From NCBI GenBank assembly GCA_012523405.1, contig JAAYIN010000045.1, forward strand, positions 8,285 to 72,284: a stretch of DNA of 64,000 nt, given 5' to 3'. This DNA is from Clostridiales bacterium. Lineage in GTDB: Bacteria > Bacillota > Clostridia > Christensenellales > Aristaeellaceae. The notes below the pieces were generated by a model, which did not search any database, was not told the origin of the DNA, and worked only from the letters and a program-made list of their open reading frames with translations. This document shows positions 205 through 57,340 of this stretch, one piece after another. Every line of letters starts with the position of its first letter. The first letter of the stretch is position 1. The translations under genes and the position numbers were made by a program.

Positions 205-954
205 TCAGCGGATACTTCTTGCCATTTCAAATTGATATTGTTGGTATTGATCCCTAAGGGCAATCCGATTGCTTCTGGACAGCATAATTTCCATGTCATT
301 GTTTAATATCACGCGATCATATAAAAACGACTTGATAAAGCTCATGTTGACAATATAGCTGCGCTGCGGCTTGATGAAATACTTCTCATCGAGTTGCTCG
401 AGGAGATCAGCGCGCGTGGTGTAAGTCTTGATGTCATCGTCATGGGTATGAACGGTCGATATCTTGTCCCTCACTTCAATATAGCTGATGCTTGGGATAG
501 AAACCGGAACAACCCCGAGCCCGCTTTTGATTTCAAGCACCTGATCATGGATAAACCCAATGCGCACGAGACATCGTTTCATGGCCTCTGCGAGATCGGT
601 CATCGCGATAGGCTTGACCAAATAATGCATGGCATTAAGCGCGAACGCTTCAATCGCGTGCTCTGTGCCTGTCGATACAAATACCACCAATGCGTTTCGG
701 TGTTTCTTCATGGCGCGGATTGTATCAAGCCCGCTCATCTGATCCATATAGGTATCGATGAAAACAATATCATAGCGTTCGGTGGAAGCGAGATAATCCA
801 AACCATGGGAATAGCTGTTAATATACGGCGTAATGTGGATGTGATTACAATACTCAATTAACATGGCAGATAGACTTTCGACATCGCGAGGAACATCATC
901 ACATATTGCAATACGCAAAATGACCGCATCCTTCCCTTTTTGTAGATTTTGCAT
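205..954 (-). CDS. LytTR-family response regulator (receiver plus LytTR DNA-binding domain), no adjacent histidine kinase
   Basis: Receiver motifs are present: ICDD acidic pair, phospho-acceptor in DIVFIDTYMD, VFVSTG, HYLVKP. The C-terminal half is LytTR-like (ISYIEVRDKISTVHT...QRSYIVNMSFI). The ATG at 954 has a weak RBS. A TTG at 918 (giving MRIAICDD) follows GGGAAGGA by 10 nt and is an equally plausible start. The ORF-track start at 996 overlaps the predicted promoter. Confidence 0.85.
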   Translation of the reverse strand: MQNLQKGKDAVILRIAICDDVPRDVESLSAMLIEYCNHIHITPYINSYSHGLDYLASTERYDIVFIDTYMDQMSGLDTIRAMKKHRNALVVFVSTGTEHAIEAFALNAMHYLVKPIAMTDLAEAMKRCLVRIGFIHDQVLEIKSGLGVVPVSIPSISYIEVRDKISTVHTHDDDIKTYTTRADLLEQLDEKYFIKPQRSYIVNMSFIKSFLYDRVILNNDMEIMLSRSNRIALRDQYQQYQFEMARSIR

Positions 955-966
955 CTTTGTTTCTAT

Positions 967-996
967 ATTATAGCAAACATAGCTATCATAATTCAA
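967..996 (-). promoter_or_regulatory. Candidate sigma-A promoter of the LytTR regulator gene
   Basis: On the - strand: TTGAAT (996-991), 18-nt spacer, TATAAT (972-967). Confidence 0.5.
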
Positions 997-1324
997 GATG
1001 GTAGAATATGTTTAACTTTTTAGTTATTTCGCAAAATGTATAAATAAGGGCGTGAAGTGATGGTTAAATTTTCTTGTTTTGATTTATAATGAGATATGAA
1101 ATGTATGTCTGGATCCAGAATCGATCTGAGAGGCAGATTTATATCTTCAAAATGAGGGAATATTGAAATATTCTACCGATTGTGCTTGATAATTCCAGCG
1201 ATATCAGTTACAATAAATGGAAGGGTTGGAAACAATTCCCCTGAAACTATCATGTGGATGCATGAATGATACTGGATAATGGATAAATCGAGGTCAGAGG
1301 CAACTGGGATTAGCATTCCAGTCA

Positions 1325-1353
1325 TTGTAATCTGACAATCTGTGCATTATACT
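1325..1353 (+). promoter_or_regulatory. Candidate sigma-A promoter of the pilus/adhesin operon
   Basis: TTGTAA (1325-1330), 17-nt spacer, TATACT (1348-1353). It lies about 140 nt upstream of the first ATG of the operon. Confidence 0.45.
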
Positions 1354-1493
1354 CATCTCCAAGCGCACCACGTTGATTAGGTCGATTGTGCTAATGCATC
1401 ATTCGTACCTTCCCACCATTCCATTGATCTTGAAATAATAATTTCTGGTACATCACCCAAAAGATGGACCCATACCATAAGGAGGATATGATC

Positions 1494-3209
1494 ATGAAGA
1501 CTAGAAGGCTTGTTGCAATAACACTGGCGGTTGCGGTGGCTCTATGCAATGTTTGCGTGTTTACATGCGGGCAGGGGAGCTTTATTACCAGTGCTTATGC
1601 TGCGGAAACACAAACTGTGGACGTTACAACACCAAGTCCGCAGGATACTGACCAAGTAGAATCAGATCAAGAAGGCGAACAAGATGGCGGTGAAACAGAC
1701 CCATCCAATCCGCCGTCCGATGATCAGGATTCCCAAGGCGAGTCTTCTGATAAGGATGCGAAGGTTACTTCAAATCCTGTTTCTGTTACCGGTGAGGTGA
1801 AGGAGACAGAGGAGCCCACATCTGAGCTAACTGAAGTAGCTGACACAGAGGAGCCCACATCTGAGCCAACTGAAGTAGCTGACACAGAGGAGCCCACATC
1901 TGAGCCAACTGAAGTAGCTGACACAGAGGAGCCCACATCTGAGCCGACACAAGAAGCAACAGACGCACCAGCTGCTGATGTTGGTTTCTTGTACGTTTCT
2001 GCAAGCGAAGCGATCTACACGAGCGCTAGCCGTACGACAATCCTCGGCACGATGAACGAGGGCGATGTAGTCTATGCTGAAGTAAGCGAAGCGTTTGAAA
2101 ACGGTACACTGTACAAGGCATATTTCGATACCACTAGAACGACTGATGCAGAAAATAGCGAGAGCGGATATTTTTACGCCTCATCAACCACTTGGCTTGT
2201 TGATGGTGATGAAGCTCTTGCAACGATGGTAAGCGTACGCACCGCTGGTGATGTGAGCATCCCATCCGTTGATTTTGTATATGCTGATGAAAAGCAAGAA
2301 GAAATTGATGATGATAAGATTTATGGTAAAGCAACCAGTAATGTGAAATTCAGACAGGAACCCACAATAGATTCTTCCGTCATCTGTGAACTGAACAAAG
2401 GAACAACCGTTGTCGTTATCGGCTCTGTTCAGAATGAAAAGGGCGAGACATGGTACTCCGTTCAGTCCGCTGACAAGACGGGTTACATTCGCGCTGATCT
2501 TGTAGCAGTTGATGGCGATGTACCTGCACTTGGCGGTGACGTGGATCCTGCAGATGAAACGGCAGAACCGACCGAACCTGCAGACGAAACCGAAGAGCCT
2601 GCCGAAGCAACGGAAACTCCGGAGGCCGAGCCTTCCGAAGAACCCGAAGCAACCGAGACTCCTGTGCCTGCTTATACCATCACCGTACTGGCCGGGGACG
2701 CAACAACGCTTGTATCCTACACGATGGAAGAAGGCACAATCCTAGATGCTGCATCGTTTGATGCTTTTATCATGCTCGACCCCGAGCAGACCTTCAAAGG
2801 CTGGTACCTATGCGATGCAAGCGGCAACGTAGAAGGCGCAGTCACATTTGGCGAAGCAGTCACGCAGTCCATCACCATGATCGCTGTGGCTGAGGAGCCG
2901 GTTGCGACGGAAGAGCCATTGCCGAGTGAAGAGCCTGTTGTAGAAGTAGTAGAGCGTAGCGTACATGTAGCTTTACATGCTGATACTGAGGAACTTACGA
3001 TTGGTAGTTCAGTCACACTTGCTGCTACATTGAATGGCTATGAGGAAGTACAATATGACTTCGTCTGGCAGACGGCGGCAATCGACGAACTTGGTAATAT
3101 CATTGGCGATTGGCAGAACACAGAGATCGATACGCTTGAGTTCAGCTACACACTAGCAGAAGACAACCTAATGGCTGCATGGAGAATGTGTGTAACCATT
3201 ACAGAATAA
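1494..3209 (+). CDS. Secreted acidic-repeat protein with SH3b-like domain, one Flg_new-like repeat and a C-terminal Ig-like domain
   Basis: AAGGAGG lies 8 nt upstream of the ATG at 1494. Signal peptide MKTRRLVAITLAVAVALCNV...AYA/AE. Tandem TEEPTSEPTEVAD repeats. SH3b-like block YGKATSNVKFRQEPTIDSSVICELNKGTTVVVIG...WYSVQ...GYIRADLV. F-KGWY motif. No sorting signal. Confidence 0.8.
   Translation: MKTRRLVAITLAVAVALCNVCVFTCGQGSFITSAYAAETQTVDVTTPSPQDTDQVESDQEGEQDGGETDPSNPPSDDQDSQGESSDKDAKVTSNPVSVTGEVKETEEPTSELTEVADTEEPTSEPTEVADTEEPTSEPTEVADTEEPTSEPTQEATDAPAADVGFLYVSASEAIYTSASRTTILGTMNEGDVVYAEVSEAFENGTLYKAYFDTTRTTDAENSESGYFYASSTTWLVDGDEALATMVSVRTAGDVSIPSVDFVYADEKQEEIDDDKIYGKATSNVKFRQEPTIDSSVICELNKGTTVVVIGSVQNEKGETWYSVQSADKTGYIRADLVAVDGDVPALGGDVDPADETAEPTEPADETEEPAEATETPEAEPSEEPEATETPVPAYTITVLAGDATTLVSYTMEEGTILDAASFDAFIMLDPEQTFKGWYLCDASGNVEGAVTFGEAVTQSITMIAVAEEPVATEEPLPSEEPVVEVVERSVHVALHADTEELTIGSSVTLAATLNGYEEVQYDFVWQTAAIDELGNIIGDWQNTEIDTLEFSYTLAEDNLMAAWRMCVTITE
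1803..1945 (+). repeat. In-frame 39-bp tandem repeat, 3.7 copies, encoding (D/E)TEEPTSE(P/L)TEVA
   Basis: Units at 1803-1841, 1842-1880, 1881-1919 and a partial unit at 1920-1945. Units 2 and 3 are identical and unit 1 differs at 2 nt. Confidence 0.95.
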
Positions 3210-3262
3210 TCCCAATTATATGAAATGGTAAACTCAAATTTCAAGCAGTGAGAGGAGAACCA

Positions 3263-6200
3263 ATGATGAGAAATATGTTGAGAAGGATTGCGGCACTGAT
3301 GTTGTGCGCAATAATGCTTCTTTCGATAGTCCCTCTTGGCGTTGCGGAGGATGGCTTGGTTGTGGATGCTCAAGTGGATGCGAAGACTACTGTAGAGGAA
3401 GTAGCTTCTTCGGTAACTACGACGGATGATGTAACAAATCAACTGAATATTGATAGCACAGATGACTCATCTAATGTAGATGTTAAATCTACTGATGTTG
3501 CCATTGGTACGATCAACTATTCACAGCCGATCGTCATTCTTGGCGCTCAAAATAGTAGCAATGCAATCGGAGAAGATACTACAGAGACTTATAAAATTAC
3601 ATTCGACCTGAATGGCGGAACGCAGGTGACTCCAAATGTACTAGAAGTCTTAATAGGTGAAAAAATTAAAGAATTGCCAATTCCTGTTTATTTAGATACT
3701 GCAGAAGGTGATCTGACTAAGCATAAAATGCAGTTCAGCGGTTGGTACTTAAATGCTGAGGGCACTGGCGATAAAGTTACTATTGATACTAATATTACTT
3801 CAAGTTTGACATTGTTTGCAAAGTGGGATGAAATAGATGTTACAAACTCCCATTATTTAAACTATATATATAAGAATGAAACTCTGGCAGAAGTAAAAAC
3901 AACATATGTTGTGTCAGAAGATCATATCTTAAAACCTTATTCGAACATGCCTGTTATAGCTGATATGACGTTTGTAGGATGGTCTAAGAGACAACAAAGT
4001 ACTCTATCATATACAGAATATGATAGATATAAATTTTCATTCAATACAACAATTTCACCAGAATCAATTAAAGTGGATGAGAAATACACACTTTCACTAT
4101 ATGCTTGGTATGCAAAAACTCGTACAGTACAATTTGTTCCAAATGGTGGATTGTCAATTCCGCCTGTTATTCTTTATGAGGGTGAACTCTTACAACAGCC
4201 AATTGTTGTAAGGGAAGGCTATACCTTAGAGGGATGGTATACATCTCAAGAGTTTGATCCGTTAACGAAGGTTACGTTCACCAATGGAGGACATGCGCAG
4301 ATAACTGCATCGTGCACTTTGTATGCCAAGTGGACAGCTCAGAAGGTAGCCGTGAAGCTAGTTTATATGTATGAAAATGCAAACGATGACGACTATTCAC
4401 CTGCGGCAAGAGATGCCACTACTGTATATGCACCTGCTGGTTCATATGTATCTATCAATAAGACTGACAGCATTAGTAACTTGAGCGCAAGTCATAGTGT
4501 TAAGTATGTTTCGGCTGATAGATTAACAAGTGGGGATGCAACGACTACGGCTAATAATACCATTGCGGCTACAATTCAAGATGTGAGTGAGTATCTATAT
4601 CAATACGATCATTTTTCTGAAGATCCTTCATTTGTGAAACCGGATGGTTCTACGATTATATTGATTTACTATAATCGTGCATTAATCACTTTGACTTTCA
4701 CATATCGAATAAGGAATGAAGATAAAAACGACGATGTTGCTACTGACGATGGAAATATTGTGCCTGATACTCAGCACCAAAGACCGGGAGGCACCAATAC
4801 GTCTGGTAGAGCAAAAATCGATGATGATAAATTGGCAGAACTAAGGTCATCTGGATATAATGCTGACTCTACAGCAAATAACACTGCCACTAATCCGATT
4901 CATTTTACATACAAATTTACCGCAAAATACGGTCAAGATATCAGTGCTGTATGGTTGAGGTCAGGTTGGGTTGAAAACAATTCTGATGAAATTACATATA
5001 AGTATGATAAGGGGGCTAGCGATCAAATTGGTACGTTCGCATACACATTTACTGGTTGGATGACCCCTGCAGGAGTAGCTCAAGTAGGTAATATGTATGT
5101 GCTCGATAAAACTTTATTTGTAACTGGAACTGAGAATAGTCCAGTGTATCATACGACAATTTTCGAGAACAAATTGGTTGCGTCAGGCCAGTTATACGCT
5201 GTTGCATCGCCTTCATCTGATATGCTTTGGATGATATATGCAGTTGAAGCTCTATCAGGAACTACAGGAGATTTTGAGACACAAAGACAAGATGGAACAG
5301 TACTTAAGTCTTATATAATTGATCATACACAAATTGTAAGGCAAACAGGTCACTTCGGCTCAAAGGGTATGGGTGATGGCTTTATAGCGTTACCTTACAA
5401 TGTACCGTTCGGAAGAAATACAAGATCGTTAACGGATTCGAAGGTTGGACCATTTACTAACGCAGGGACAGATGAATACGTAACCCCAACATCGAATAAT
5501 ACTACATTTGAGGGAAAATTTCTGAATGTATTTGCCGATGAACTTAATGGCCAGGAAGAATTTCCTAACACAGATACACAACAAATCCATTTATATAAAA
5601 GAAATAACTTCGTGTTAAAACTTGTTTCAAACGATGGAACGCAGCAAGAATATGTGAAGTCACTTCAATATCAAGCTCCACTTATGGAGGAAATTATTGC
5701 TTCTGAAAAAACGTTAAGTAAAGATGATTATACGTTTGTTGGGTGGTATACAAGTTCTGACTTTAACGAAGGCTCAAAATTTGAGGTTTCTGATAAATCA
5801 ATAATGCCAAATGCTAATATGACATTACATGGAAAATGGGAATCAACAAAGTTTCATGTTGTATATTATTATTCTACTCAGTCTGATCAAATGTTCAAAG
5901 AGCCATTTGGTGTGACAGAAAATGCTTATCTTACGGATTATGAGATGGACAAAGCATACAAGGATAACTTTGACTGTTGGGGCTGGTATCCGCCGAATTC
6001 CAATACACTAATACGTTTTGATTTTGCCATTCCTGTTGGTCGTCTGTTTACAGACGATAGCGACACATTAAAGCTCTATGGAATGTGGAAAGAGACTGAT
6101 GCTACGGTTACTTACGATCCCGGCAGTCAGGGCAAAAATGCATTGGTTGTTACAGATGAAACAAAGTACAAAACTGGAACGGGTGTATTTGAACTACCTG

Positions 6201-7087
6201 ACTATAAAACAAAATGGCCTGATGGCGTCCCTGTGGATGAAGATTATGTTTTTGTTGGTTGGAAAGCACCAAATGATAAAATATATCAACCAGGAGAAGA
6301 GCTTGTTGTTCTATCTTCGCAAATGACATTTGTTGCCCAGTGGGAAGAATGCAAAAATGCTTTTCAAATAATTTATGATGCGAATGGTGGAATGGGTAAT
6401 AACGATCCCACAATCAAGACCTATTCATTTGCTCTGACTGGTTCTGGTGAATATAAGGACACTCCGATCTGGGATAATGAACTTCAATTTAAACAATATT
6501 TTACTTTTGCAGGTTATGAGCTGATGGGTTGGTCTAAGCTGCCAGAAGGCCCTGTAGACTATAAAATAGGCGAGGGGACGATAAGGTTAGAGAAAGGAAA
6601 ACCAACAACCCTCTATGCTATCTGGAAACCCACGACAGTAGCTATTACGATTAAGAAGGTTGTTACTGGCGGCTTCGGGGATGTAGACAAGGCTTTTAGT
6701 TTTAACGCTACTGTTACACCTAAAAATGGAGTAAGTACTACAGTGGAGTTCACACTAAAGAATGGTGATGAGGGGCACTTGCTTAAAGATGTTCCAATCG
6801 GTTCAAAGTTAGTAATTGAAGAAACAGGCGCAGGTGACTACGAACTTTCGGTTACAGCTACTGGAATTGTCGAGGGGTCGCTAAGTGGTTTTGTGTACAC
6901 TGTTTCTGAAGTTAAAAAGAGCAAAGTTGATGATGACATTCTCATTACATTCACCAACAACAAAGAAGCAACCATCGACACTGGTGTTCTTCTTGACTCC
7001 TTGCCCTACATACTGATCCTTGGAGCAGCGGTAGCTGGCATTGTGATATTCCTACTTCGGAAGCGTCGCCGTGATGATGAAGAGTAA
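3263..7087 (+). CDS. Giant sortase-anchored surface adhesin (putative pilus tip protein) with Flg_new/Listeria-Bacteroides repeats and a C-terminal pilin-type isopeptide domain
   Basis: Signal peptide MMRNMLRRIAALMLCAIMLLSIVPLGVAEDG. At least 7 repeats carry the F/L-xGW(Y/S/K)...(L/F)(Y/H/V)(A/G)xW signature (for example YTLEGWYTSQEF...CTLYAKW). The C-terminal domain is VAITIKKVVTGGFGDVDKAFSFNATV...LVIEETGAGDYEL...ITFTNNKEA. It ends with TIDTG, a hydrophobic helix and RKRRRDDEE. Confidence 0.85.
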   Translation: MMRNMLRRIAALMLCAIMLLSIVPLGVAEDGLVVDAQVDAKTTVEEVASSVTTTDDVTNQLNIDSTDDSSNVDVKSTDVAIGTINYSQPIVILGAQNSSNAIGEDTTETYKITFDLNGGTQVTPNVLEVLIGEKIKELPIPVYLDTAEGDLTKHKMQFSGWYLNAEGTGDKVTIDTNITSSLTLFAKWDEIDVTNSHYLNYIYKNETLAEVKTTYVVSEDHILKPYSNMPVIADMTFVGWSKRQQSTLSYTEYDRYKFSFNTTISPESIKVDEKYTLSLYAWYAKTRTVQFVPNGGLSIPPVILYEGELLQQPIVVREGYTLEGWYTSQEFDPLTKVTFTNGGHAQITASCTLYAKWTAQKVAVKLVYMYENANDDDYSPAARDATTVYAPAGSYVSINKTDSISNLSASHSVKYVSADRLTSGDATTTANNTIAATIQDVSEYLYQYDHFSEDPSFVKPDGSTIILIYYNRALITLTFTYRIRNEDKNDDVATDDGNIVPDTQHQRPGGTNTSGRAKIDDDKLAELRSSGYNADSTANNTATNPIHFTYKFTAKYGQDISAVWLRSGWVENNSDEITYKYDKGASDQIGTFAYTFTGWMTPAGVAQVGNMYVLDKTLFVTGTENSPVYHTTIFENKLVASGQLYAVASPSSDMLWMIYAVEALSGTTGDFETQRQDGTVLKSYIIDHTQIVRQTGHFGSKGMGDGFIALPYNVPFGRNTRSLTDSKVGPFTNAGTDEYVTPTSNNTTFEGKFLNVFADELNGQEEFPNTDTQQIHLYKRNNFVLKLVSNDGTQQEYVKSLQYQAPLMEEIIASEKTLSKDDYTFVGWYTSSDFNEGSKFEVSDKSIMPNANMTLHGKWESTKFHVVYYYSTQSDQMFKEPFGVTENAYLTDYEMDKAYKDNFDCWGWYPPNSNTLIRFDFAIPVGRLFTDDSDTLKLYGMWKETDATVTYDPGSQGKNALVVTDETKYKTGTGVFELPDYKTKWPDGVPVDEDYVFVGWKAPNDKIYQPGEELVVLSSQMTFVAQWEECKNAFQIIYDANGGMGNNDPTIKTYSFALTGSGEYKDTPIWDNELQFKQYFTFAGYELMGWSKLPEGPVDYKIGEGTIRLEKGKPTTLYAIWKPTTVAITIKKVVTGGFGDVDKAFSFNATVTPKNGVSTTVEFTLKNGDEGHLLKDVPIGSKLVIEETGAGDYELSVTATGIVEGSLSGFVYTVSEVKKSKVDDDILITFTNNKEATIDTGVLLDSLPYILILGAAVAGIVIFLLRKRRRDDEE

Positions 7088-7098
7088 TGGTGATGTGA

Positions 7099-7425
7099 AT
7101 GGATAATAGGAAATCGACCAGAAGGAGAGCCTCGCAGCAGCCCGAGCCAATTGAACCCGCACCCATTGTCAATCGCGAGCAAAAGCGCATTGCACAGTGG
7201 CTCAACAAGGTCAAGTTTCGCAAGCAGCTCTTTGGAGGTGTCAGCGAGCGTGATGTGTGGAAGAAGATTACGGAGCTCAATGAACTATACAACGAGGCGA
7301 TCTTCGCAGAGCGAGTAAGGTATAACACTTTGCTGGATCAATGGCGCAGAGCCAATCAGGCGGGCGGCAACGCCCGCAAGCACTACAGCAATAACAATCG
7401 AGACAACGGAGGAGAAGGGGAGTGA
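7099..7425 (+). CDS. Small basic cytoplasmic protein with DivIVA-like N-terminal motif
   Basis: No signal peptide. The block WLNKVKFRKQLFGGVSERDVWKKITELNELYNEAI fits the DivIVA/GpsB N-domain pattern (F-x4-G(G/Y)-x4-V). Its stop overlaps the next start (GTGA at 7422-7425). Confidence 0.6.
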   Translation: MDNRKSTRRRASQQPEPIEPAPIVNREQKRIAQWLNKVKFRKQLFGGVSERDVWKKITELNELYNEAIFAERVRYNTLLDQWRRANQAGGNARKHYSNNNRDNGGEGE

Positions 7426-7973
7426 AGAAAAAGAAAAAGAAGCTTGGATCGATCGCGGATGTTATCGCAAAGCGTAAGAGCAAGCTCTTCACTCAAGAAG
7501 GTTACCGAAGCCTACTCATCCGGTTGATCGTGATTGTAGTAGCGGGATATCTACTCTTAACTCAGGTATTCCTAATCACTCAGGCAACTGGCATGGACAT
7601 GTTCCCCGCTGTCAAGGACGGCGACCTGATGATCGCCTTCAGACTGCAGCAGGATTATGTGACGGATGATGTGGTGGTGTATGTTGCCGATGGCAAACAG
7701 CGCTGCGGACGCATTGTCGCTACGGAATATGATTCTGTTGATCTCAGCGATGGCGGTTCTCTCAGGGTCAACGGCACGACACAAGGCGGAGAAATCCTGT
7801 ATCCAACCTATGCCAAAGAGGGGATTGAGTACCCCTACCGTACCCCAGCAGGATGTGTGTTCATCCTTGGTGATTATCGTACGCAAGCCACGGACAGCCG
7901 AGACTTCGACGCCATACCAATGGCAGATGTCCAAGGCAAGGTGATCACCATACTCCGAAGGCGTGGACTGTAA
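7422..7973 (+). CDS. SipA/LepA-like signal peptidase I homologue with the catalytic dyad replaced (putative pilin chaperone)
   Basis: GGAGGAG lies 6 nt upstream of the GTG start. N-terminal TM helix. S26 boxes are recognisable: box B TGMDMFPAV (Asp59 where Ser is expected), box C KDGDLMI, box D GRIVATEYDSV (Gly96 where Lys of KR(I/V)IGLPGD is expected), box E LGDYRTQATDSRDFDAIP. Confidence 0.85.
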   Translation: MKKKKKKLGSIADVIAKRKSKLFTQEGYRSLLIRLIVIVVAGYLLLTQVFLITQATGMDMFPAVKDGDLMIAFRLQQDYVTDDVVVYVADGKQRCGRIVATEYDSVDLSDGGSLRVNGTTQGGEILYPTYAKEGIEYPYRTPAGCVFILGDYRTQATDSRDFDAIPMADVQGKVITILRRRGL

Positions 7974-8151
7974 GGTTTATGCCAATGGATACCCGCTCAT
8001 CGCATGAGCATAGCCGCATGCTCTGGTGGGCAGAGCAAACCCCAAGCGCGGGACTTTCGTCCCGATTCGCTAAGAGGAACAACCACAGGTTATTTCCATG
8101 GAAAGCATCCGCTTTTCGTAGGCAATAAATCAAAAAATGGAGGCATGTCAC

Positions 8152-9135
8152 ATGAGCAAGAAAATTATGGCAATCCTAATGGTAATGATGATGGTGCTTG
8201 GAATGAGCACAATGGCAATGGCAGCGGACGAAGATCCGACAATTACTAAGACCTATGAAAGTCTAGGAGATGGTTCGAGCCCTGCAGAGACCTTTACTTT
8301 TGACGAGTGGAAACTTTTTGCAGAGGACTCTCCTCTATCAGTAGAAGAAGTTGAGGCACTTGGGATGCCTAGCATTGGCGAAATCACATTTATAGAGGGT
8401 GCAGCCGGTAATACAACAGATGGAGTTAAATCGGCAGGCATAAACCTTCCTACATATACGAGAGTTGGTATATATACATATACATTCAATGAGGCGGCTG
8501 GCGATACAGCAGGTGTTACTTATCATTCAACTCAAATGACATTAAAAGTAACAGTGACTCAGGGTGCAGATGGTTTGGTAACCACCTCTGCAATTTATGC
8601 AGATGGAGTTGGAGAAGGCATCACTAAGACTGACAACATAACCAATACCTATGCCTCTGGTAAATTAACTGTAAAAAAGACAGTTTCTGGTAACGCGGGC
8701 GATCTGAAAAAACCGTTCACATTCACAGTAGTGTTGACCGTACCAGATAAAAAAGTAAACCGTAGTAAAATTGGTGCTGTTTTAAAGTCACAAATCGAGG
8801 GGAATACATTATCGGATCCTTCGACTGATGGTAATACAATCACCTATACCTTTGCGTTGGCTAATGGTGACACAGTTGCTTTTACTAATATTCCAGCAGG
8901 TGTCACCTATAGTGTAACGGAAATTGCTGAAGACTACACATCCTCTTTTGCAGAAGGTGCAACGTCTGGCGAGATTACAGGTAACGCTGATGTTAATACA
9001 ACAATTAATAATAAAAAGGATACAACCCCCGACACCGGTATTTCCCTTGACAACATTCCTTATATCATTCTGCTAAGCGTAGCATTCCTAGGCTTGCTGT
9101 TCTTCGTAACCAAGCGTCGTGCGATCAACGAATAA
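8152..9135 (+). CDS. Backbone pilin, Spy0128/T-antigen (FctA) type, two isopeptide domains
   Basis: GGAGG lies 8 nt upstream of the ATG at 8152. Signal peptide ends AMA/ADE. Family blocks: VGIYTYTFNEAAGDTAGVTYHSTQMTLKVTV and LTVKKTVSGNAGDLKKPFTFTVVL. The C-terminus is TPDTG, then a hydrophobic helix and KRRAINE. Confidence 0.85.
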   Translation: MSKKIMAILMVMMMVLGMSTMAMAADEDPTITKTYESLGDGSSPAETFTFDEWKLFAEDSPLSVEEVEALGMPSIGEITFIEGAAGNTTDGVKSAGINLPTYTRVGIYTYTFNEAAGDTAGVTYHSTQMTLKVTVTQGADGLVTTSAIYADGVGEGITKTDNITNTYASGKLTVKKTVSGNAGDLKKPFTFTVVLTVPDKKVNRSKIGAVLKSQIEGNTLSDPSTDGNTITYTFALANGDTVAFTNIPAGVTYSVTEIAEDYTSSFAEGATSGEITGNADVNTTINNKKDTTPDTGISLDNIPYIILLSVAFLGLLFFVTKRRAINE

Positions 9136-9159
9136 TTATTCCAAGCAAATGACCTTTCC

Positions 9160-9235
9160 TTCCGATGGGAGGTACGTCTCCTTCGGAATGTAGACCATTG
9201 GTATTGCGTGCAGGGCGGTACGTCGCCTTGCACGC
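9160..9235 (+). promoter_or_regulatory. Two tandem stem-loops with identical GTACGT loops between the pilin and sortase genes
   Basis: H1 spans 9160-9188 (ttccga.gggag GTACGT ctcct.tcggaa). H2 spans 9206-9235 (12-bp stem gcgtgcagggcg/cgccttgcacgc with one G-U pair). Neither is followed by a U-run. Confidence 0.5.
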
Positions 9236-9304
9236 TTACCGCGGTTCGCAAATCATGCTTGGGAAAGGAAACCATGGCGATTTCACCATGGGAACAATAA
9301 ATAA

Positions 9305-10099
9305 ATGTCACGTCAATTATTACGGTTGCTCAATGGTTTGGTCAGTACGGTGATTGTGCTGGCACTGATCGTTTCAGGCGTATATGCAGGATACGCCCTA
9401 TGGGATAATGAACAGATTTATGCATCGGCTGAAAATGTTCAAGCGGATATGATTCAGCTGAAACCCAAAGTCGTGGAAACAGCAGATGCTGAGGAAGAGG
9501 CAGGGCCATCCTTTGCGGAGCTGCTCGCCATCAACCCCGATGTATGCGGATGGGTGACGATGGATAACACAAGAATTGATCACCCCGTTTTGCAGGGCGA
9601 ATCAAATTTCTCTTATATCAACACGGATGTTTATGGAGACTTTGCACTCGCTGGCAGCATCTTTTTAGACTACAGATGCAACAAAGCGTTTACAGATTAT
9701 TATTCACTTACCTATGGCCATCATATGGTCAATGGCGGTATGTACGGCGATTTGGAACTTTATAAAGACAAAACGTTCTTTGAAGAAAATCGCACAGGAA
9801 CATTGATTACCCCCGATCGGGTATACTTACTTGAGACATTTGCTTGCCTAGTGGTGATTTCATCGGAAGATAATATATTCTATCCACAAAAATGGCAGGA
9901 TGAAATAGACGGATTGATCGACTTTGCGAAGCTGAATGCTATGCACCTTCACAATGACACGATCGATGCGATGCTGGAAGAAGAACTGGAAACAGGAGTA
10001 ATACCACAGGTGCTGGCGCTCACAACCTGCTCCTCTGAGTTTACAGATGCAAGAACCATTATACTGGCTGTGATGAAAGAGTACACACCAGCGAAATAG
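9305..10099 (+). CDS. Class B sortase (pilin-polymerising type)
   Basis: N-terminal TM anchor. Class B blocks: TRIDHPVLQGESNFSYINTDVYGDFALAGSIFLDYRC...LTYGHHM (His), LALTTCSSEF (Cys), TDARTIIL (Arg). Confidence 0.9.
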   Translation: MSRQLLRLLNGLVSTVIVLALIVSGVYAGYALWDNEQIYASAENVQADMIQLKPKVVETADAEEEAGPSFAELLAINPDVCGWVTMDNTRIDHPVLQGESNFSYINTDVYGDFALAGSIFLDYRCNKAFTDYYSLTYGHHMVNGGMYGDLELYKDKTFFEENRTGTLITPDRVYLLETFACLVVISSEDNIFYPQKWQDEIDGLIDFAKLNAMHLHNDTIDAMLEEELETGVIPQVLALTTCSSEFTDARTIILAVMKEYTPAK

Positions 10100-10114
10100 G
10101 GAGGATATTTGATT

Positions 10115-10774
10115 ATGAAGAAGAGCTTTCGTAGCACGGTCATTATGCTGTGCGCAATGGTACTATGCCTGATGGTGTGCACCTCTGGAGCATTGGCTGC
10201 TCAAAAGACTGTTTCGATTGATGTCGAGATCAAGCTGGAGGGTACGCCGCTGCCATCTCCCGCTGAGACATATACCGTGTTGATGCGCGCAGATGACGCA
10301 TCCTTTCCCATGCCTTCAGGCAGTTCTACCGGCTATTACGAGCTGAAGATCACAGGGGCAGGCACTGCAAAGTTCCCAGTGACGACCTATGATAAAGTAG
10401 GTGTCTACACGTATACCATTCAGCAGGTCGTTGGCGCGAATGCCCAGTGCACCTATGATCAGCGCATCTATGATTTGACGGTGACGATTACCAACAAGCT
10501 TCCTAATTATGATGGCTTTGATGCCTATGTGGCTTTCAACGAAAAAAGCGCAACGGAAAAGCCTGATAAGGCAGAGTTCATCAACAAGTATCCTATTGTC
10601 ACGCCAACCCCCACCACACCACCCTCCTCAGGCGACGGTACCATTACCGCTACAGGCGTAACAGACTCCTGGCCTTATTACTTGGCTGGTGCAGCTGTGC
10701 TGGTGATCATTGCCTTCGTTATGATTATGATCATGCGCCGTAAAGAGGATGAGACCGATGGTGAAAAAAACTAA
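10115..10774 (+). CDS. Small base pilin (FctB-like) with proline-rich tail
   Basis: GGGAGGA lies 10 nt upstream of the ATG at 10115. Signal peptide ends ALA/AQK. One pilin domain (VGVYTYTIQQVVGANAQCTYDQRIYDLTVTITN...AEFINKY). Tail PIVTPTPTTPPSSG. ITATG is followed by a hydrophobic helix and RRKEDE. Confidence 0.75.
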   Translation: MKKSFRSTVIMLCAMVLCLMVCTSGALAAQKTVSIDVEIKLEGTPLPSPAETYTVLMRADDASFPMPSGSSTGYYELKITGAGTAKFPVTTYDKVGVYTYTIQQVVGANAQCTYDQRIYDLTVTITNKLPNYDGFDAYVAFNEKSATEKPDKAEFINKYPIVTPTPTTPPSSGDGTITATGVTDSWPYYLAGAAVLVIIAFVMIMIMRRKEDETDGEKN

Positions 10775-11777
10775 GTCGGTTTCTCGCAAGCGTAGAGTGA
10801 GAAGAAGCAAGCGCATTGCGATGTGTGTGCTGATTCTGGCGCTTGTTATTGCTGCGGTTTTGGGCGTTCTCGCTTATGCTGAGATCAATGACCGAAAAGC
10901 TGGTGTGGACTATTACGACTCACTCGCATCTGCGAATCAAACGGATGCAAACACTGCGTCGCAATCTGTCGATCAAGCAAGCAATAGCCAAGGCAGTGCA
11001 TCAGGCGATCAGTCATCGCAGTCTAGTATAGATGACTATTTACAGTCGTTTACTGACGATGATGACGAGTATGCAACATCAGCTCAGCAACAGCCGTCTG
11101 CCGCAGACCAGTCTGGGACAGACCAATCTGGCACAGACCAGTCTGCTCCAGAAGCAACCGCTGCAAATGCCATAGCCTCAACGGCTGAGCCAGAGAAGAA
11201 AGTCGTCGTTCAATCGGAAATCGACTTTGAAACGCTCTGGAAAACCTGTCCTGATGTGGTTGGCTGGATTCGCTGCGAGGGCACTGTGATTGACTATCCC
11301 ATCGTTCAGGGAACGGATAACGACTACTACTTAGCCCATTTACCAGATGGCACTGCAAACAGAGCGGGCTCCATTATGATGGATGTCTCCTGCGACCCCG
11401 CATTCACCAATGACGTGACAATTTTGCACGGTCATAACATGAAGAGCGGTAAGATGTTTGGCGATCTATTTCGGTTCGGCGTAGAGGAGTACTATCTGAG
11501 GTTTCCGATATTGAGACTGTATACGCCAAGCGGTGATTACGATGTCGAGATATTTGCAGGTTGTACAGTCAACGGCGCAACATTTGGCTATCCGACGGTG
11601 TTTGCATCGGAGGAAGAGTACATTGCCTTTGTAGAGAAAATCGTGAAGGCAACTGCTTACGAAACGAATGTTGAGGTCAATTATCCGGATGAGATATTGC
11701 TGTTGTCAACATGCGCATATTCCTATCAGAATCAAAGATTCATCCTCGCGGGAAAGATCATGTTTCCAGAGGATTGA
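10758..11777 (+). CDS. Second class B sortase with a long low-complexity linker
   Basis: TM anchor CVLILALVIAAVLGVLAY, then about 100 aa rich in S/Q/D including DQSGTDQSGTDQS. Class B blocks follow: TVIDYPIVQGTDNDYYLAH...ILHGHNM, LLLSTCAYS, NQRFILAG. It overlaps the end of the base-pilin gene. Confidence 0.9.
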   Translation: MVKKTKSVSRKRRVRRSKRIAMCVLILALVIAAVLGVLAYAEINDRKAGVDYYDSLASANQTDANTASQSVDQASNSQGSASGDQSSQSSIDDYLQSFTDDDDEYATSAQQQPSAADQSGTDQSGTDQSAPEATAANAIASTAEPEKKVVVQSEIDFETLWKTCPDVVGWIRCEGTVIDYPIVQGTDNDYYLAHLPDGTANRAGSIMMDVSCDPAFTNDVTILHGHNMKSGKMFGDLFRFGVEEYYLRFPILRLYTPSGDYDVEIFAGCTVNGATFGYPTVFASEEEYIAFVEKIVKATAYETNVEVNYPDEILLLSTCAYSYQNQRFILAGKIMFPED

Positions 11778-11782
11778 AATGA

Positions 11783-11818
11783 AAACCATCCCTGATTGAA
11801 GTCAGGGATGGTTTTTTC
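11783..11818 (+). terminator. Rho-independent terminator closing the pilus operon
   Basis: 13-bp stem aaaccatccctga/tcagggatggttt followed by TTTTT. Confidence 0.85.
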
Positions 11819-11939
11819 TTGCAGATATGAATGTGCGGTGAATCTTTTGCAAATGCTGCCGGAAGCATTGTAATATTGTTTTTCATGCTTACAATAGGAA
11901 GAGTAGAGCATCAAATCCTATATCAAAGGAAGTAAGCAT

Positions 11940-12905
11940 ATGAAGATTACCAACGAGATGATGAATCCAGAGGTTAGGCTGAAGGGGAGCATCGTTCGCA
12001 AGCTCTTTCGGTTTAAGAGCCGCGAGACATTTGTTCGGTCGCAGAAAATGGTGGTGAAGGTGCGCAAGTTCATGAAGCCTAGGGCATTTGCATTCATTGA
12101 GCGAACGATCACCACCAGTGACAATAGCAGCTTAAGGCTGTGCCAATACCAAGCCTTTGAAACCAAACCGAATGCAATCGGTCTTTTGTGGATTCATGGC
12201 GGGGGATATGGGGTGGGTACGCCTGAGCAGGATATTGCGTTCATGAAGAGTTTCTTGGAGACAGCGAATTGCGTGATTATATCGCCTGACTACAGGCTTG
12301 CCATCGACGCCCCCTATCCAGCAGCTATGAATGATTGCTACGCTGCGCTTCTATGGATGCGCGAGCATGCCGAGGAATTGGGCATTAGAGAGGATCAGCT
12401 GTTTGTGGGCGGGGATAGTGCAGGCGGCGGGCTATCGGCGGCTACGGTGCTGTTTGCGCGCGACAACGGTAAGGTGAACGTAGCGTTTCAAATGCCGCTG
12501 TATCCGATGATTGATGACCGCATGATCACGCCCTCTTCGCAGGATAATGACGCACCCGTTTGGGATTCAGCCGCTAATAAAGTTGGCTGGCAGATGTATC
12601 TGGGCGATTTGTTCGAAACCGACGCAGTGCCCCCATATGCCGCACCAGCGAGGGCGAAGAACTTTGAGGGACTTCCACCCACATATACCTATGTAGGCAA
12701 TATTGAGCCCTTCTACGACGAAACAAAGCAGTATATAGATGACCTGAAAGCGGCGGGTGTGCAGGCAGAGCTTGATATATACCCAGGCTGCTTTCATGCG
12801 TTTGATATCATGTGCAAGAATTCCGCGGTTGGCAAACAAGCATCCGACCGTCTCAAGAAGCAATTCAAGTATGCGAGCGAGCATTATTTTGCAAAGCAGC
12901 CATGA
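11940..12905 (+). CDS. Alpha/beta hydrolase, esterase/lipase (HSL-like, Abhydrolase_3)
   Basis: Oxyanion motif WIHGGGYGVG, nucleophile elbow GDSAGGG, C-terminal GCFHAFD. Confidence 0.85.
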   Translation: MKITNEMMNPEVRLKGSIVRKLFRFKSRETFVRSQKMVVKVRKFMKPRAFAFIERTITTSDNSSLRLCQYQAFETKPNAIGLLWIHGGGYGVGTPEQDIAFMKSFLETANCVIISPDYRLAIDAPYPAAMNDCYAALLWMREHAEELGIREDQLFVGGDSAGGGLSAATVLFARDNGKVNVAFQMPLYPMIDDRMITPSSQDNDAPVWDSAANKVGWQMYLGDLFETDAVPPYAAPARAKNFEGLPPTYTYVGNIEPFYDETKQYIDDLKAAGVQAELDIYPGCFHAFDIMCKNSAVGKQASDRLKKQFKYASEHYFAKQP

Positions 12906-16175: not shown

Positions 16176-16244
16176 TCCTATCGTGACTCAAGGTGCATGG
16201 ATTGCATCATAAAAATATGAAAAATATGGAAGGGGACATTGTCA

Positions 16245-17924
16245 ATGAAGAAAATTCTTAGTCTAGTTCTTACTCTAGCAATGCTTTTGAGCATGGTAAG
16301 CGTCATTGGCGCAAGCGCTGAAGAAGCGGTTGGCTACACCTATGGCGACACATTCTACTCAGAAGAGCCCGTAACCTACAGCATGTATTTTAGCGATGCA
16401 AGCTGGTACCCCATGGTCGAAACTTGGGAAACAGAGGGCGTTTTCAAGAAGATTGAAGAGCTAACCAACGTAACCATCGATGTTCATTCTTATGACAGCG
16501 GCGATTACAACAGCAAGACAACCCTAGAGATCAACGCTGGACAGTCCGCATACATCATTCCTAAAGTGTATGACGAATCCCCCTTTGTTGACGGCGGCGC
16601 AGTTGTAGCAGTATCTGACTACGTTCAGTATATGCCCAATTACACCAATTTCTACGAGAGGTACGACCTCAAGGGCGACGTTGACACCATCGTTCGTTCC
16701 AATGGCAGCTACTATCGTCTACCTGGCATGCACGAGACTCCTTTGCAGGATTACACCCTCATGATCCGTGATGATATCTTCCAGGCAGCTGGCTATGATG
16801 TAGCAGCTCTTGAGAAGGACTGGACATGGGACGACCTTTGCGAGATCCTTGTCGGCGTAAAAGCTTATTTGGTAGCAGAAGGCAAGATCACAGAAGACAC
16901 TTACATCTGGAGCGACCTGTGGTGCGGCAGTGAGAGCGGACAGGGCAACGGCGGTAACCTGCTGAAACTTATCGCAGCAAGCTATGACGTTCCTTCCGGT
17001 TGGGCAGTCGGCAACGGCATGATGTTCGACGCTGAGAAGAATGAATGGTATTTCGCTTCCACAACCGAAGATTACAAGGAATTCGTTACTGTTGCTAACA
17101 AGTTCATCAGCAATGGCATCCTTGATCCCGAAACCTTCACACAGGATGATACCACCGCAACCAACAAGTTCTATAACGGCGAGACCGTTATCATGAGCAT
17201 GAACCGCGGTCAGTACACCACATGGATGAGCGGCCTTGAGACCGGTCTTGGCGAAGGCAACTACTCCACATATGTTACTGTTTATCCTAAAGGCTCCAAT
17301 AACTACGTGTCTGAGAACAGCCGTCTTGAGTGCGGTGTGATGATCTCAAACAATGCACTTAAAGCGCTTGGCGAAGATGGCTTCATCAAGATGATGCGCT
17401 TTGTTGACTGGCTCTGGTATGGCGAGCAGGCTTATGACCTCACCAAGTGGGGCGTTGAAGGCGAGACCTACGAAGTCGTAACTGACGAAGCAGGCAACGC
17501 TGTCAAGCAGCTTCTACCCGGCTTCAAGTGCGGCGGTCTTGGTATCTCCGGCGCTGAAGAAGATGTTGACATTCGCTTGCAATGGGGCTATGCAGGCGGT
17601 AACTTCTGGTATGGCCACTCCTTGGCACAGAACAGCGACAATTTCATTCCCGTCATTCGTGATTATTTCAACCGCATGGGCGAGTATCGTGACATCCGTC
17701 CGATCAACCCCTCTGTTGTAACAACCGAAGATGAGAACGAGCAGATGAACCTTTGGAAGACCCCTCTCATTGACAACGTCAATGCTTGGACACTTCAGTT
17801 CGTCACCGGACAAAAAGACATCACAGCTGATTGGGATGCTTATGTAGCAAGCTGCAACGGCCTCAATGCTGAGTCTTTGGCTCAGATGACCAACGAAGCA
17901 TACGCTCGTACACAGGCTGAATAA
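16245..17924 (+). CDS. Extracellular solute-binding protein (large LplA-type)
   Basis: RBS GGAAGGGGA, then the ATG at 16245. Signal peptide MKKILSLVLTLAMLLSMVSVIGASA. About 560 aa, typical of LplA-like oligosaccharide binders. Confidence 0.9.
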   Translation: MKKILSLVLTLAMLLSMVSVIGASAEEAVGYTYGDTFYSEEPVTYSMYFSDASWYPMVETWETEGVFKKIEELTNVTIDVHSYDSGDYNSKTTLEINAGQSAYIIPKVYDESPFVDGGAVVAVSDYVQYMPNYTNFYERYDLKGDVDTIVRSNGSYYRLPGMHETPLQDYTLMIRDDIFQAAGYDVAALEKDWTWDDLCEILVGVKAYLVAEGKITEDTYIWSDLWCGSESGQGNGGNLLKLIAASYDVPSGWAVGNGMMFDAEKNEWYFASTTEDYKEFVTVANKFISNGILDPETFTQDDTTATNKFYNGETVIMSMNRGQYTTWMSGLETGLGEGNYSTYVTVYPKGSNNYVSENSRLECGVMISNNALKALGEDGFIKMMRFVDWLWYGEQAYDLTKWGVEGETYEVVTDEAGNAVKQLLPGFKCGGLGISGAEEDVDIRLQWGYAGGNFWYGHSLAQNSDNFIPVIRDYFNRMGEYRDIRPINPSVVTTEDENEQMNLWKTPLIDNVNAWTLQFVTGQKDITADWDAYVASCNGLNAESLAQMTNEAYARTQAE

Positions 17925-17942
17925 GCTACTTTAGAAACTCTC

Positions 17943-17970
17943 GGGGCAGCGTTGAGCTGCCCCTTCTTTT
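17943..17970 (+). terminator. Rho-independent terminator or attenuator after the SBP gene
   Basis: Stem ggggcagc/gctgcccc, 5-nt loop, then TTCTTTT. Confidence 0.8.
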
Positions 17971-18020
17971 ATGCTAAACTATCATTGAGATTATTCAAAT
18001 GTAGAAAGGTGACCAACAGA

Positions 18021-21000
18021 ATGCAGCAGCTTTTGAATGGTGGCTGGTCGTTTTGCAAGATGCCGCTTGGCAGCGAAATTGAGGATTTACAGGGAGCTCA
18101 TTGGGCGAATGTGGATTTGCCTCATGATTGGCTGATATCCCAGTCGCGTCTGTACCAATCTAGCGACGGCTGGTATACCCGCACGCTTCATATTGAGGAT
18201 GCAGCAGACAGCTACTATGTGCTGCGCTTTGAGGGCGTTTATATGGACGCTGCTGTCCTTGTCAATGGGCAGGAGGCAATGAGCCATGCATACGGTTATA
18301 CGACCTTTGACTGCCATATGACGCCGTTTTTGCATGCGGGTGAAAACACGATCCATGTGCATGTGCGCTATCAAGCCCCTAACTCGCGTTGGTACTCGGG
18401 CGCAGGTATATTCCGCGATGTGACTCTGCATGTACTGAGCAACTATCATATCGCGATGGATGGGCTATATGTGCAGGCAACGGTGAACGGCGATGAGGCT
18501 TTTGTGGCAATAGAAACGGATCTGGAGAGCTTTGAAGCGGGCAGCTCTTTGCCAAAGACGCTTACCCACCAGCTGTATAGCCCGCAGGGAGTGTGCATTG
18601 CGGCAAGGACAGCGGAGGTTTGCCATGCCTCTGATCAAACCGGGAAATGGGCGGGATGCGTTGGGATGACGCTTGCTGTTCACGAGCCTGAGCTTTGGAG
18701 CTGCGAAGCGCCGACACTCTATCGTTTGGTAACGACGCTTGGCGATCAAACCTTCACGACCAATGTCGGTTTCCGCACCATAGAGATGACCGCAGACCGC
18801 GGTTTCTTCCTCAATGGCGAGAATATCAAGCTCAAGGGTACCTGTCTGCATCACGACCTTGGAGCACTGGGTGCAGCGTACAGCAGCGCAGCAGCACGCA
18901 GGCAGCTTGTCATCATGCAGCGCATGGGCGTGAATGCACTTCGCACCGCTCACAACCCGCCTGCCAGCGATGTGATGAACCTGTGCGACGAGCTGGGTAT
19001 ATTGGTGATCGATGAGCTGCTGGATATGTGGGAGCGTCCAAAGACCTCCTATGACTATGCGCGATTCTTCGGCGACTGCTACAAGGCGGATGTGCGCAGC
19101 TGGGTGAGGCGTGACCGCAATCATCCGTCCCTCATCATGTGGTCGATTGGCAATGAAATTCTTGACACCCATATTGACGGACGCGGGCTTGAAGTCACCA
19201 AGATGCTCGCAGCTGAGGTGATCAAGCATGATCCAAAGGGCAATGCAAAGACCACTATTGGGTCGAACTTCATGCCTTGGCAGGGCGCACAGAACTGCGC
19301 GGACGAGGTGGAGGTTGCAGGGTATAACTATGCTGAGAAATACTACGATCAGCATCATGCGCAGCACCCAAACTGGATCATCTATGGAAGCGAAACCGCA
19401 TCGACGCTTTCAAGCCGCGGTATCTACCGCTTTCCGATAGAAGCACCCATTCTCTCAGACAACGATCTGCAATGCTCGTCCCTTGGCAACAGCACGAGCA
19501 GCTGGGGCACAAAGAGCCTCGAACTATGCATTGTGGATGATTTGAATACACCATATTCGCTGGGTCAATTTCTCTGGTCAGGCATTGACTACATAGGCGA
19601 ACCCACGCCTTATTTCACTCGAAATTGCTATTTTGGGCAAGCGGACACCGCATGCTTTGAAAAAGACTCGTACTATTTGTTCCAATCACTGTGGACAAGC
19701 AGCGAGCATAATCCTATGGTGCATATTGGCGTGATTTGGGATTTCAATGCAGGTCAGTTGATTGATGTGCCGGTGTACAGCAATGCGCACGAGGTGGAGC
19801 TGCTGCTCAATGGTCAGTCCATTGGTCGCAAGAAGCTTGATCGCCATATCGTAGAAAACTGCGACGCCAAGTGGAAAGTCCCTTATCAGGCGGGCACGCT
19901 GGAAGCACGAGCCTATGATGAGCAAGGTAACCTTATTGCGCATGATGTGCAAAAGAGCTTTGGGAACGCTGCATCCATCATATTGACCATGCAAAACGAA
20001 ACCCTGGATGCTAGCGGTGAGGACATCGCATTTGTTGAAATTACAATGGCAGATGCGGATGGCAATCCCGCTCGGAATGCTAACAATCGAGTTTTAGTCT
20101 CGGTAGAAGGCGAAGGGCGATTGCTCGGCATGGATAATGGGGATAGCACCGATCTTGACGGGTATCAGGTGAATTCCCGCCGCCTGTTCAGCGGCAAGCT
20201 CCTTGCTATGGTCGCGGCCAACCAGCAGGCTGGCGAGATTGTGGTGAGGGTTTCATCGGCTGGTCTTATGGATGCTGAGCTAAGGTTGCAAAGCAGCGAA
20301 GCAACCATGCGAGATGGTATTGCATGCAGCCGCAGCGTTGAGCACGCTCCTGCTAATGCGGAAATCCCCATTCGAAAGCTCGATATCACCATCCTTGGCG
20401 GCGATCACCTAAGCGCCGAGAACCCAAAATGCGAGGTGGTGACGAAGATTATGCCAGATAACGCTACCTACGGCGACATCACATTTTGCATGACCAATGA
20501 ACTCGGCATCAATACGCCCTGTGCTAGCATCGTGCGAGAGGATGGACGGGTATTTGTGCAGGCGGCAGGCGACGGAATGGTATATCTGCGCGCTATGGCG
20601 AATAACGGCTATGACCATCCACGCATTATTTCGCAAAAGGAAATCACCATCACAGGCATGGGCACGCCGCTCCTTGATCCGTATGAGCTCATTTTAGGCG
20701 GCATGTATGACCTATCGGAGGGCGATGTTGGTCCGGGGAATGAGAAGGGCGTAGCGACCGCGCGTGATGGGTGGAGCATGGTAGGCTTTCAGAATGTGGA
20801 TTTTGGTGACGCTGGAGCGGATGAAATCACATTGCCTATCTTTGCGCTCAATGATGAGATGTATCCGATTCAGATATTCAGCGGTGATCCGCGCAAGGAT
20901 GGAAGCGAGAGGATCGGCATCATCAATTATCAGAAGCCATCGATTTGGAATGTTTATCAAGAGGTAACGCATCGCTTTGATACGCCGCTTTATGGTGTGC

Positions 21001-57255: not shown

Positions 57256-57340
57256 CTGTTTCAACTGCTTTCAATTATATACTTTACAAAGCGTGCATGA
57301 TGCCTTATGCTTGTCCTAGTTTTGAATTTGGAGGGTACTA

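Follow-up and report, generated by a model that had tools for sequence, protein, structure and literature searches.

What does a signal peptidase I homologue do in a pilus operon when both of its catalytic residues have been replaced? This question was raised by a gene at positions 7422-7973 (forward strand) of a Clostridiales DNA stretch of 64 kb, called the window here. A first-pass annotation of this DNA had read Asp in place of the catalytic Ser and Gly in place of the catalytic Lys, had pointed to the same pair in Streptococcus pyogenes SipA/LepA, and had proposed as checks an alignment with SipA and active signal peptidases (SPases) and a structure prediction, both of which were carried out. 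We propose, with a probability of about 80%, that the gene product is a non-catalytic, membrane-anchored S26 pseudo-peptidase that, by analogy with SipA, would aid the polymerisation of an FctA-type pilin by class B sortases.

The gene starts with a GTG that shares bases with the stop of the ORF before it (GTGA), and a GGAGG stands about 9 nt 5' of this start. Its 183-aa product matched PF10502 (Pfam Peptidase_S26; 43.2 bits against a cut-off of 22.9, E 5e-11) and TIGR02227 (NCBIfam "signal peptidase I"; 74.1 bits against a cut-off of 47), so that membership in the S26 family is well above chance. The protein consists of a K/R-rich cytoplasmic tail (residues 1-28), a single TM helix (about residues 29-52) and an extracytoplasmic S26 domain (residues 53-183). 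The structural S26 boxes G-x-x-M-x-P, GD, R-I-x-A and GDxR...DSR are kept, and the motifs quoted in the first-pass annotation, TGMDMFPAV, CGRIVATEYDSV and GDYRTQATDSR, were all found in the translated sequence. An AlphaFold2 model built from 55 sequences (mean pLDDT 80.9) showed a helix at residues 11-49 followed by a beta-rich domain with the SPase-type fold. An independent assembly from Logan, L007, was 99.99% identical to the window over 14 kb.

The replacement of both catalytic residues held up when the codons were read directly and the protein was aligned by two methods. Asp59 (gac, 7596-7598) and Gly96 (gga, 7707-7709) occupy the Ser and Lys positions: in a HMMER alignment to the active SPase 4nv4, the Ser of GKSMMPT was paired with Asp59 and the Lys of VKRIIG with Gly96, and a MAFFT alignment of 153 sequences placed both residues in the same columns. 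Active S26 enzymes can be recognised by a Ser in box B (S-M-x-P) and a Lys in box D (K-R-[IV]); the product of 7422-7973 has neither at the dyad positions. When aligned to S. pyogenes SipA by HMMER, Asp59 fell on Asp48 and Gly96 on Gly85.

We then compared these positions across the family. Among 121 close homologues (the query and 120 homologues at 60% identity or more), position 96 was Gly in 117 and Ala in 4, while position 59 was Asp in 51, Gly in 51, Ala in 10, Glu in 6 and Ser in 3. Residues G57, M60, F61, P62, R97, D151, R153, D158, S159 and R160 were invariant in this set, and no conserved substitute Ser or Lys was found near the dyad positions. In a diverse set of 150 representatives at about 35-60% identity, aligned with MAFFT, Ser and Lys occurred together in exactly one (P0257); in the others the Lys position was Gly, Ala, Ser, Leu, Arg, Asn or Thr, and the Ser position was Asp, Gly, Ser, Glu, Asn, Ala, Tyr and others. 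As P0257 nests among dyad-less representatives in a neighbour-joining (NJ) tree calculated without support values, the SipA-like subfamily is not uniformly inactive. Pilus-linked SipA homologues of S. suis and S. agalactiae have likewise been reported with an intact dyad (PMC4049620). In these alignments, what the SipA-like family has in common is that the Lys is gone, in most cases replaced by Gly; this is its conserved hallmark. An Asp at the variable position 59 is incidental, in agreement with SipA mutagenesis, in which mutation of Asp48 or Lys83 was without effect (PMC4049620).

The same columns bear on whether the protein could be an active, pilin-processing peptidase that relies on alternative residues, such as Asp59 with Arg94 or Lys92. 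The S26 scaffold and the DSR motif are retained, some homologues have Ser at position 59, and the polar pocket formed by Asp48 and Lys83 was once considered as an alternative site in SipA (PMC4049620). However, an alternative nucleophile at position 59 would have to be D, G, A, E or S in close homologues, with Gly as frequent as Asp; position 94 varies among H, R, Y, Q, K and E in the 121 close homologues, position 92 varies too, and Gly96 has no side chain. The Asp48 and Lys83 mutants of SipA were unaffected, moreover, and cleavage was not detected (PMC4049620). We therefore regard an active peptidase as very improbable.

The gene lies inside a pilus operon (3248-11777, forward strand). The adhesin gene and a small ORF precede it; after it come a two-domain backbone pilin of the FctA/T-antigen type and two class B sortases, between which a small pilin is encoded. 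The first gene (3248-7087) encodes a putative tip adhesin of 1279 aa. This protein has a signal peptide and, at its C-terminus, a pilin-type DUF5979/DUF7601 domain (Pfam/NCBIfam); it also contains Listeria-Bacteroides repeats. The putative backbone pilin (8137-9135; probable start at ATG 8152, as in the gene call in L007) matched Pfam FctA, DUF7601 and TIGR03786, and its best matches in the PDB were S. pyogenes T18.1 (6e-26), T3.2, Spy0128 and T13 and pneumococcal PitB. A small one-domain FctA-type pilin (10109-10774; Pfam FctA, TIGR03786) is a candidate basal or minor subunit. Class B sortase 1 (9305-10099) scored 158 bits with TIGR03064, above its cut-off, and class B sortase 2 (10749-11777), which has a long low-complexity linker after its TM segment, scored 162.7 bits and also matched Pfam Sortase. 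The best PDB matches for the sortase were 3psq (E 1.9e-33 with sortase 1) and 4y4q, the former of which we take to be the S. pyogenes pilus sortase Spy0129/SrtC1.

All three pilus proteins have signal peptides that end in A-x-A-like sites (AMA/ADE, ALA/AQK and GVA/ED). Each also has a C-terminal sorting signal followed by a hydrophobic TM segment and a basic tail: IDTG in the adhesin (C-terminus encoded at 7035-7087), PDTG in the backbone pilin (9070-9135) and TATG in the small pilin (10690-10774). With its adhesin, backbone and small pilins, class B sortases and sorting signals, the operon has the components of a sortase-B pilus locus of the FCT/PI-2 type. The three signals are non-canonical with respect to both LPXTG and the streptococcal EVPTG/VPPTG, which suggests that these class B sortases recognise a motif of their own, x-[DA]-T-G. 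Recognition may therefore differ in detail from that in streptococci. IDTG was also present in the adhesin of one related locus, L002. A consensus scan of 900-12200 for promoters and terminators did not rise above the shuffled background, and the operon boundaries were not defined by it.

Further genes are found on either side of the operon. A LytTR-type response regulator (205-996, reverse strand; Pfam) is encoded divergently upstream, and no histidine kinase was visible in the available sequence. Between this regulator and the adhesin lies a gene (1464-3209, forward strand) whose product, a secreted protein of 581 aa, contains an SH3_3 domain and TEEPTSEPTEVAD repeats in tandem; the gene stops 39 nt short of the adhesin gene. 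Elsewhere in the window (16239-21446, 54799-57264 and other parts), the content resembles that of an ordinary Clostridial chromosome and includes genes for a sugar ABC transporter, GH2 glycosidases, ScpB, RecJ, a class A PBP, an acetolactate-synthase-like TPP enzyme and an ECF S-component; none of these was linked to the pilus finding.

The relationship of the protein to streptococcal SipA was assessed by sequence, structure and phylogeny. Its closest PDB sequences were SipA (4n31; E 1.9e-25, 92.7 bits) and LepA (4k8w; E 2.8e-25), and active SPases in the PDB matched at E 1.4e-4 or worse and 24.8 bits or less. Foldseek likewise returned SipA 4n31 as the best match of the AlphaFold model, with a target-based TM of 0.85, an rmsd of 2.3 A and 40% identity; S. 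aureus SpsB (23-24% identity), E. coli LepB and LexA/UmuD ranked behind it. In an NJ tree rooted on a single outgroup, the active SPase 4nv4, and calculated without support values, the query and S. pyogenes SipA fell in the same dyad-less radiation. The product of 7422-7973 is a member of the SipA/LepA subfamily. SipA itself, with Asp48 and Gly85 at the dyad positions, lacks peptidase activity (PMC4049620) and retains an SPase-like fold with its cleft, and pilin polymerisation requires it (PMC4049620; PMC7900414; PMC3178606). This requirement has been established in S. pyogenes and S. pneumoniae only. The description in the first-pass annotation of a non-proteolytic SipA/LepA protein that is needed for pilus polymerisation and carries the same Asp/Gly pair thus agrees with the literature, and the residues correspond exactly in the alignment.

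The first-pass annotation had gone further and described the pair as the same dead-enzyme solution in a distant lineage, arguing from this for a conserved non-catalytic role. A non-catalytic role is indeed probable, but the independence of the two cases did not hold. The simplest account of the shared Asp/Gly is that the two proteins have a common ancestor or that the locus was transferred as a whole, because the protein is about 40% identical to SipA, the operon is homologous and both proteins belong to one dyad-less radiation. Convergence would require a housekeeping SPase to have been inactivated and recruited to pilus loci twice, in Clostridia and in streptococci. The hosts do belong to different classes (Clostridia and Bacilli), and position 59 is labile, so that Asp could arise repeatedly at this site. 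Nevertheless, we consider an independent origin unlikely, given the gap between SipA (92.7 bits) and the active PDB enzymes, the placement of query and SipA in the tree rooted on an active SPase, and the homology of the entire operon, its T-antigen-type pilin and class B sortases included. The GC content of 3248-11777 (43.5%, against 49.3% for the remaining window) is also compatible with a mobile island; it hints at mobility and would fit horizontal acquisition of the locus. A tblastn search of PLSDB with the SipA-like protein, as a check for plasmid carriage, gave no match.

We also asked how widely such proteins occur. A word-index search with the SipA-like protein returned 1497 protein clusters at E<=1e-3, and an exhaustive search of representatives at 50% identity returned 4617 at E<=1e-3, 1044 at 1e-10 and 56 at 1e-30, the weaker matches of which certainly include active SPases. 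Related genes are present in Lachnoclostridium sp. An138 as well as in MAGs of Eubacteriales and Clostridiaceae. Eight independent loci were compared for gene order (the window with L007, then L002, L003, L004, L008, L009, L010 and L011). All eight had the order adhesin, small ORF, SipA-like gene, pilin and class B sortase, with the small pilin and the second sortase as optional members.

This distribution argues against the view that the gene is a decaying, functionless relic of a signal peptidase. Such a view could appeal to the loss of both catalytic residues and to residue 163 (codon 7908-7910, DSRDFG), an Asp in place of the nearly invariant Gly that follows the box E DSR (Gly in 118 of the 121 close homologues). 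Yet L007, assembled independently, has the same Asp163, and in the closest relative, P0001, the position is occupied by Glu. The reading frame is unbroken, with a ribosome-binding site and translational coupling, more than 1000 clusters match at E<=1e-10, and synteny is kept in 8 of 8 loci. An alignment of 55 homologues (about 63% identity) contained 33 invariant and 42 nearly invariant columns, a pattern that indicates strong purifying selection on the SipA-like protein. A relic is, in our judgement, even less probable than an active enzyme.

Several of the related loci carry an additional element upstream. In L008, L009, L010 and L011, a tyrosine recombinase gene (Phage_integrase) lies directly upstream of the adhesin gene, and L008 has two such recombinase-adhesin pairs. 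Inverted repeats of 18-26 nt, 96-100% complementary, flank a segment of 203-265 bp between recombinase and adhesin in L008 (3649-3944), L009 (1455-1709) and L011 (3679-3979); in L010 the recombinase was present and the inverted repeat was not found. In L008, L009 and L011 this arrangement looks like an invertible-promoter architecture, that is, a candidate phase-variation switch. The window had neither a recombinase nor inverted repeats upstream of its adhesin gene.

How might a pseudo-peptidase of this kind act? The role that we propose joins the observations on this protein (that it is a SipA homologue without the dyad, its fold, and the content and synteny of its operon) to the streptococcal literature, from which we infer both a need for it in polymerisation and a mode of binding. 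It would be a type II membrane protein with a short basic tail, one TM helix and an extracytoplasmic SPase-I fold. By analogy with SipA, the retained peptide-binding cleft at the membrane surface may hold or present pilin precursors, or a pilin-sortase intermediate, without proteolysis. The co-encoded class B sortases would then polymerise the FctA-type backbone pilin (8137-9135), and the same sortases would attach the tip adhesin (3248-7087) and the small pilin (10109-10774). The 64-kb window contains no further S26 homologue and thus no second, intact S26 peptidase; its remaining ORFs of similar length (about 180 aa) encode an ECF S-component, a NusG-II protein and ScpB. The signal peptides of the pilus proteins would therefore have to be removed by a housekeeping SPase encoded elsewhere in the genome. 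Pull-downs of S. pyogenes SipA with pilin, sortase and peptides were negative (PMC7900414), so that the mechanism is a matter of inference even for S. pyogenes.

A possible lead on this mechanism comes from the small ORF immediately upstream (7099-7425, forward strand), the stop codon of which overlaps the GTG of the SipA-like gene. It encodes 108 aa with no TM segment and no signal peptide, and a hypothetical protein from a Clostridiales MAG has the identical sequence (100%). Each of the 8 Clostridial loci compared had a homologue at this position, and in each its translation was coupled to that of the SipA-like gene. The family shares the core W-L-x2-V-[KR]-F-[RK]-K-x2-[FL]-G-G-V-x-E-x-D-V-W-K-K-I-x-E-L-N-x-[LM]-Y, within which FRKxLFGGVSERDVWKKIxELNxMY is very conserved and F-x5-GGV-x-E-x-DVWKK invariant. 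The protein had no match in Pfam, NCBIfam, PDB sequences or, by Foldseek, among known folds; none of the 57 database clusters of the family carried a Pfam domain, and Pfam at E<=10 gave only noise for four orthologues. A model of the small ORF consisted of a short helix, a loop and a long helix.

The F-x5-GG-x3-E-x-DVW motif and the helix-loop-long-helix model had suggested a DivIVA/GpsB-like protein. This was not supported: hhalign against B. subtilis GpsB gave a probability of 0.2%, and Foldseek found nothing. A profile of the small ORF searched against the PDB gave matches at E>=0.35 only, among them a weak match to the NtrC/Fis HTH, and identity as a small HTH regulator is as unproven as DivIVA/GpsB. 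The product is predicted to be cytoplasmic and helical, and could be a cytoplasmic partner that binds a K/R-rich tail, either that of the SipA-like protein or that of the sortases; alternatively, it could regulate the operon as a small regulator. We tentatively raise the possibility, to which we give rather less than even odds, that the ORF encodes a dedicated part of the SipA-type pilus systems of Clostridia that has so far gone unrecognised. Should it interact with SipA, it would offer a first handle on the mechanism of SipA-type pseudo-peptidases.

These results also have a bearing on annotation. Because a dyad-less protein such as this one would be named "signal peptidase I" automatically, the analysis has value for annotation: public relatives P0042 and P0071 bear that name with the dyad absent, and the equivalog naming by TIGR02227 amounts to systematic over-annotation of the SipA-like clade. 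Such genes would be better named SipA/LepA-like pilus-assembly factors. The conserved change from Lys to Gly and the incidental Asp sharpen the criteria by which they can be searched for. With hundreds of clusters, SipA-dependent sortase-B pili appear to be widely distributed among Clostridia of guts and digesters, in which the pili probably mediate adhesion, and the Clostridial small ORF and, in some relatives, the recombinase and inverted-repeat switch could help in the study of the SipA mechanism. The streptococcal SipA/LepA proteins were already known, as was a C. perfringens sortase-B locus with a "signal peptidase" (PMC8088525), and current understanding is not overturned by the Clostridial finding.

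Lastly, we compared the window with known systems. The fold, TM anchor and boxes B-E of active SPases (E. coli LepB, B. subtilis SipS, S. aureus SpsB and B. anthracis 4nv4) are recognisable in the window protein. In contrast to these enzymes, it lacks the Ser-Lys dyad, its similarity to them is weak (E 1e-4 or worse, 23-24% identity), and its gene belongs to a pilus operon rather than to the housekeeping set. [quoted passage not shown] It resembles the window, by its locus description, as another Clostridial sortase-B pilus operon with a signal-peptidase homologue; its tip protein is a Cna-type collagen adhesin, unlike the window adhesin.

The content and order of the window locus are those of the streptococcal FCT-2/3/4 loci (cpa-sipA-fctA-srtC-fctB; PMC7900414) and PI-2 loci (pitA-sipA-pitB-srtG1-srtG2; PMC3178606). 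The backbone pilin matches PitB of the S. pneumoniae/Mitis-group PI-2 pilus (7f7y, 4s3l), and the GC content of the PI-2 islet is below that of its host genome (PMC3178606), just as the GC of the window operon is below that of the rest of the window. Relative to PI-2, the window has an extra small pilin between the sortases, an extra small ORF, and a much larger adhesin with Listeria-Bacteroides repeats.

The closest likeness was to S. pyogenes SipA/LepA of the FCT-2/3/4 pili (4n31, 4k8w), which shares with the window protein the S26 fold, the N-terminal TM anchor and Asp/Gly at the aligned positions. Its extracellular domain is about 40% identical to the window protein, and its gene is likewise placed between tip adhesin and backbone pilin, upstream of a class B sortase. 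The loci differ in that the window host belongs to the Clostridiales, has two class B sortases and a coupled small ORF upstream, and uses pilin signals of the form x-D/A-T-G where streptococci use EVPTG/VPPTG. We know of no described streptococcal counterpart of the coupled small ORF. Between the two proteins, the window has Arg94 where SipA has Lys83, an SPase-like Gly in box E (GDYR) where SipA has Asn140 (NDYR), and Asp163 in place of the conserved Gly after DSR.
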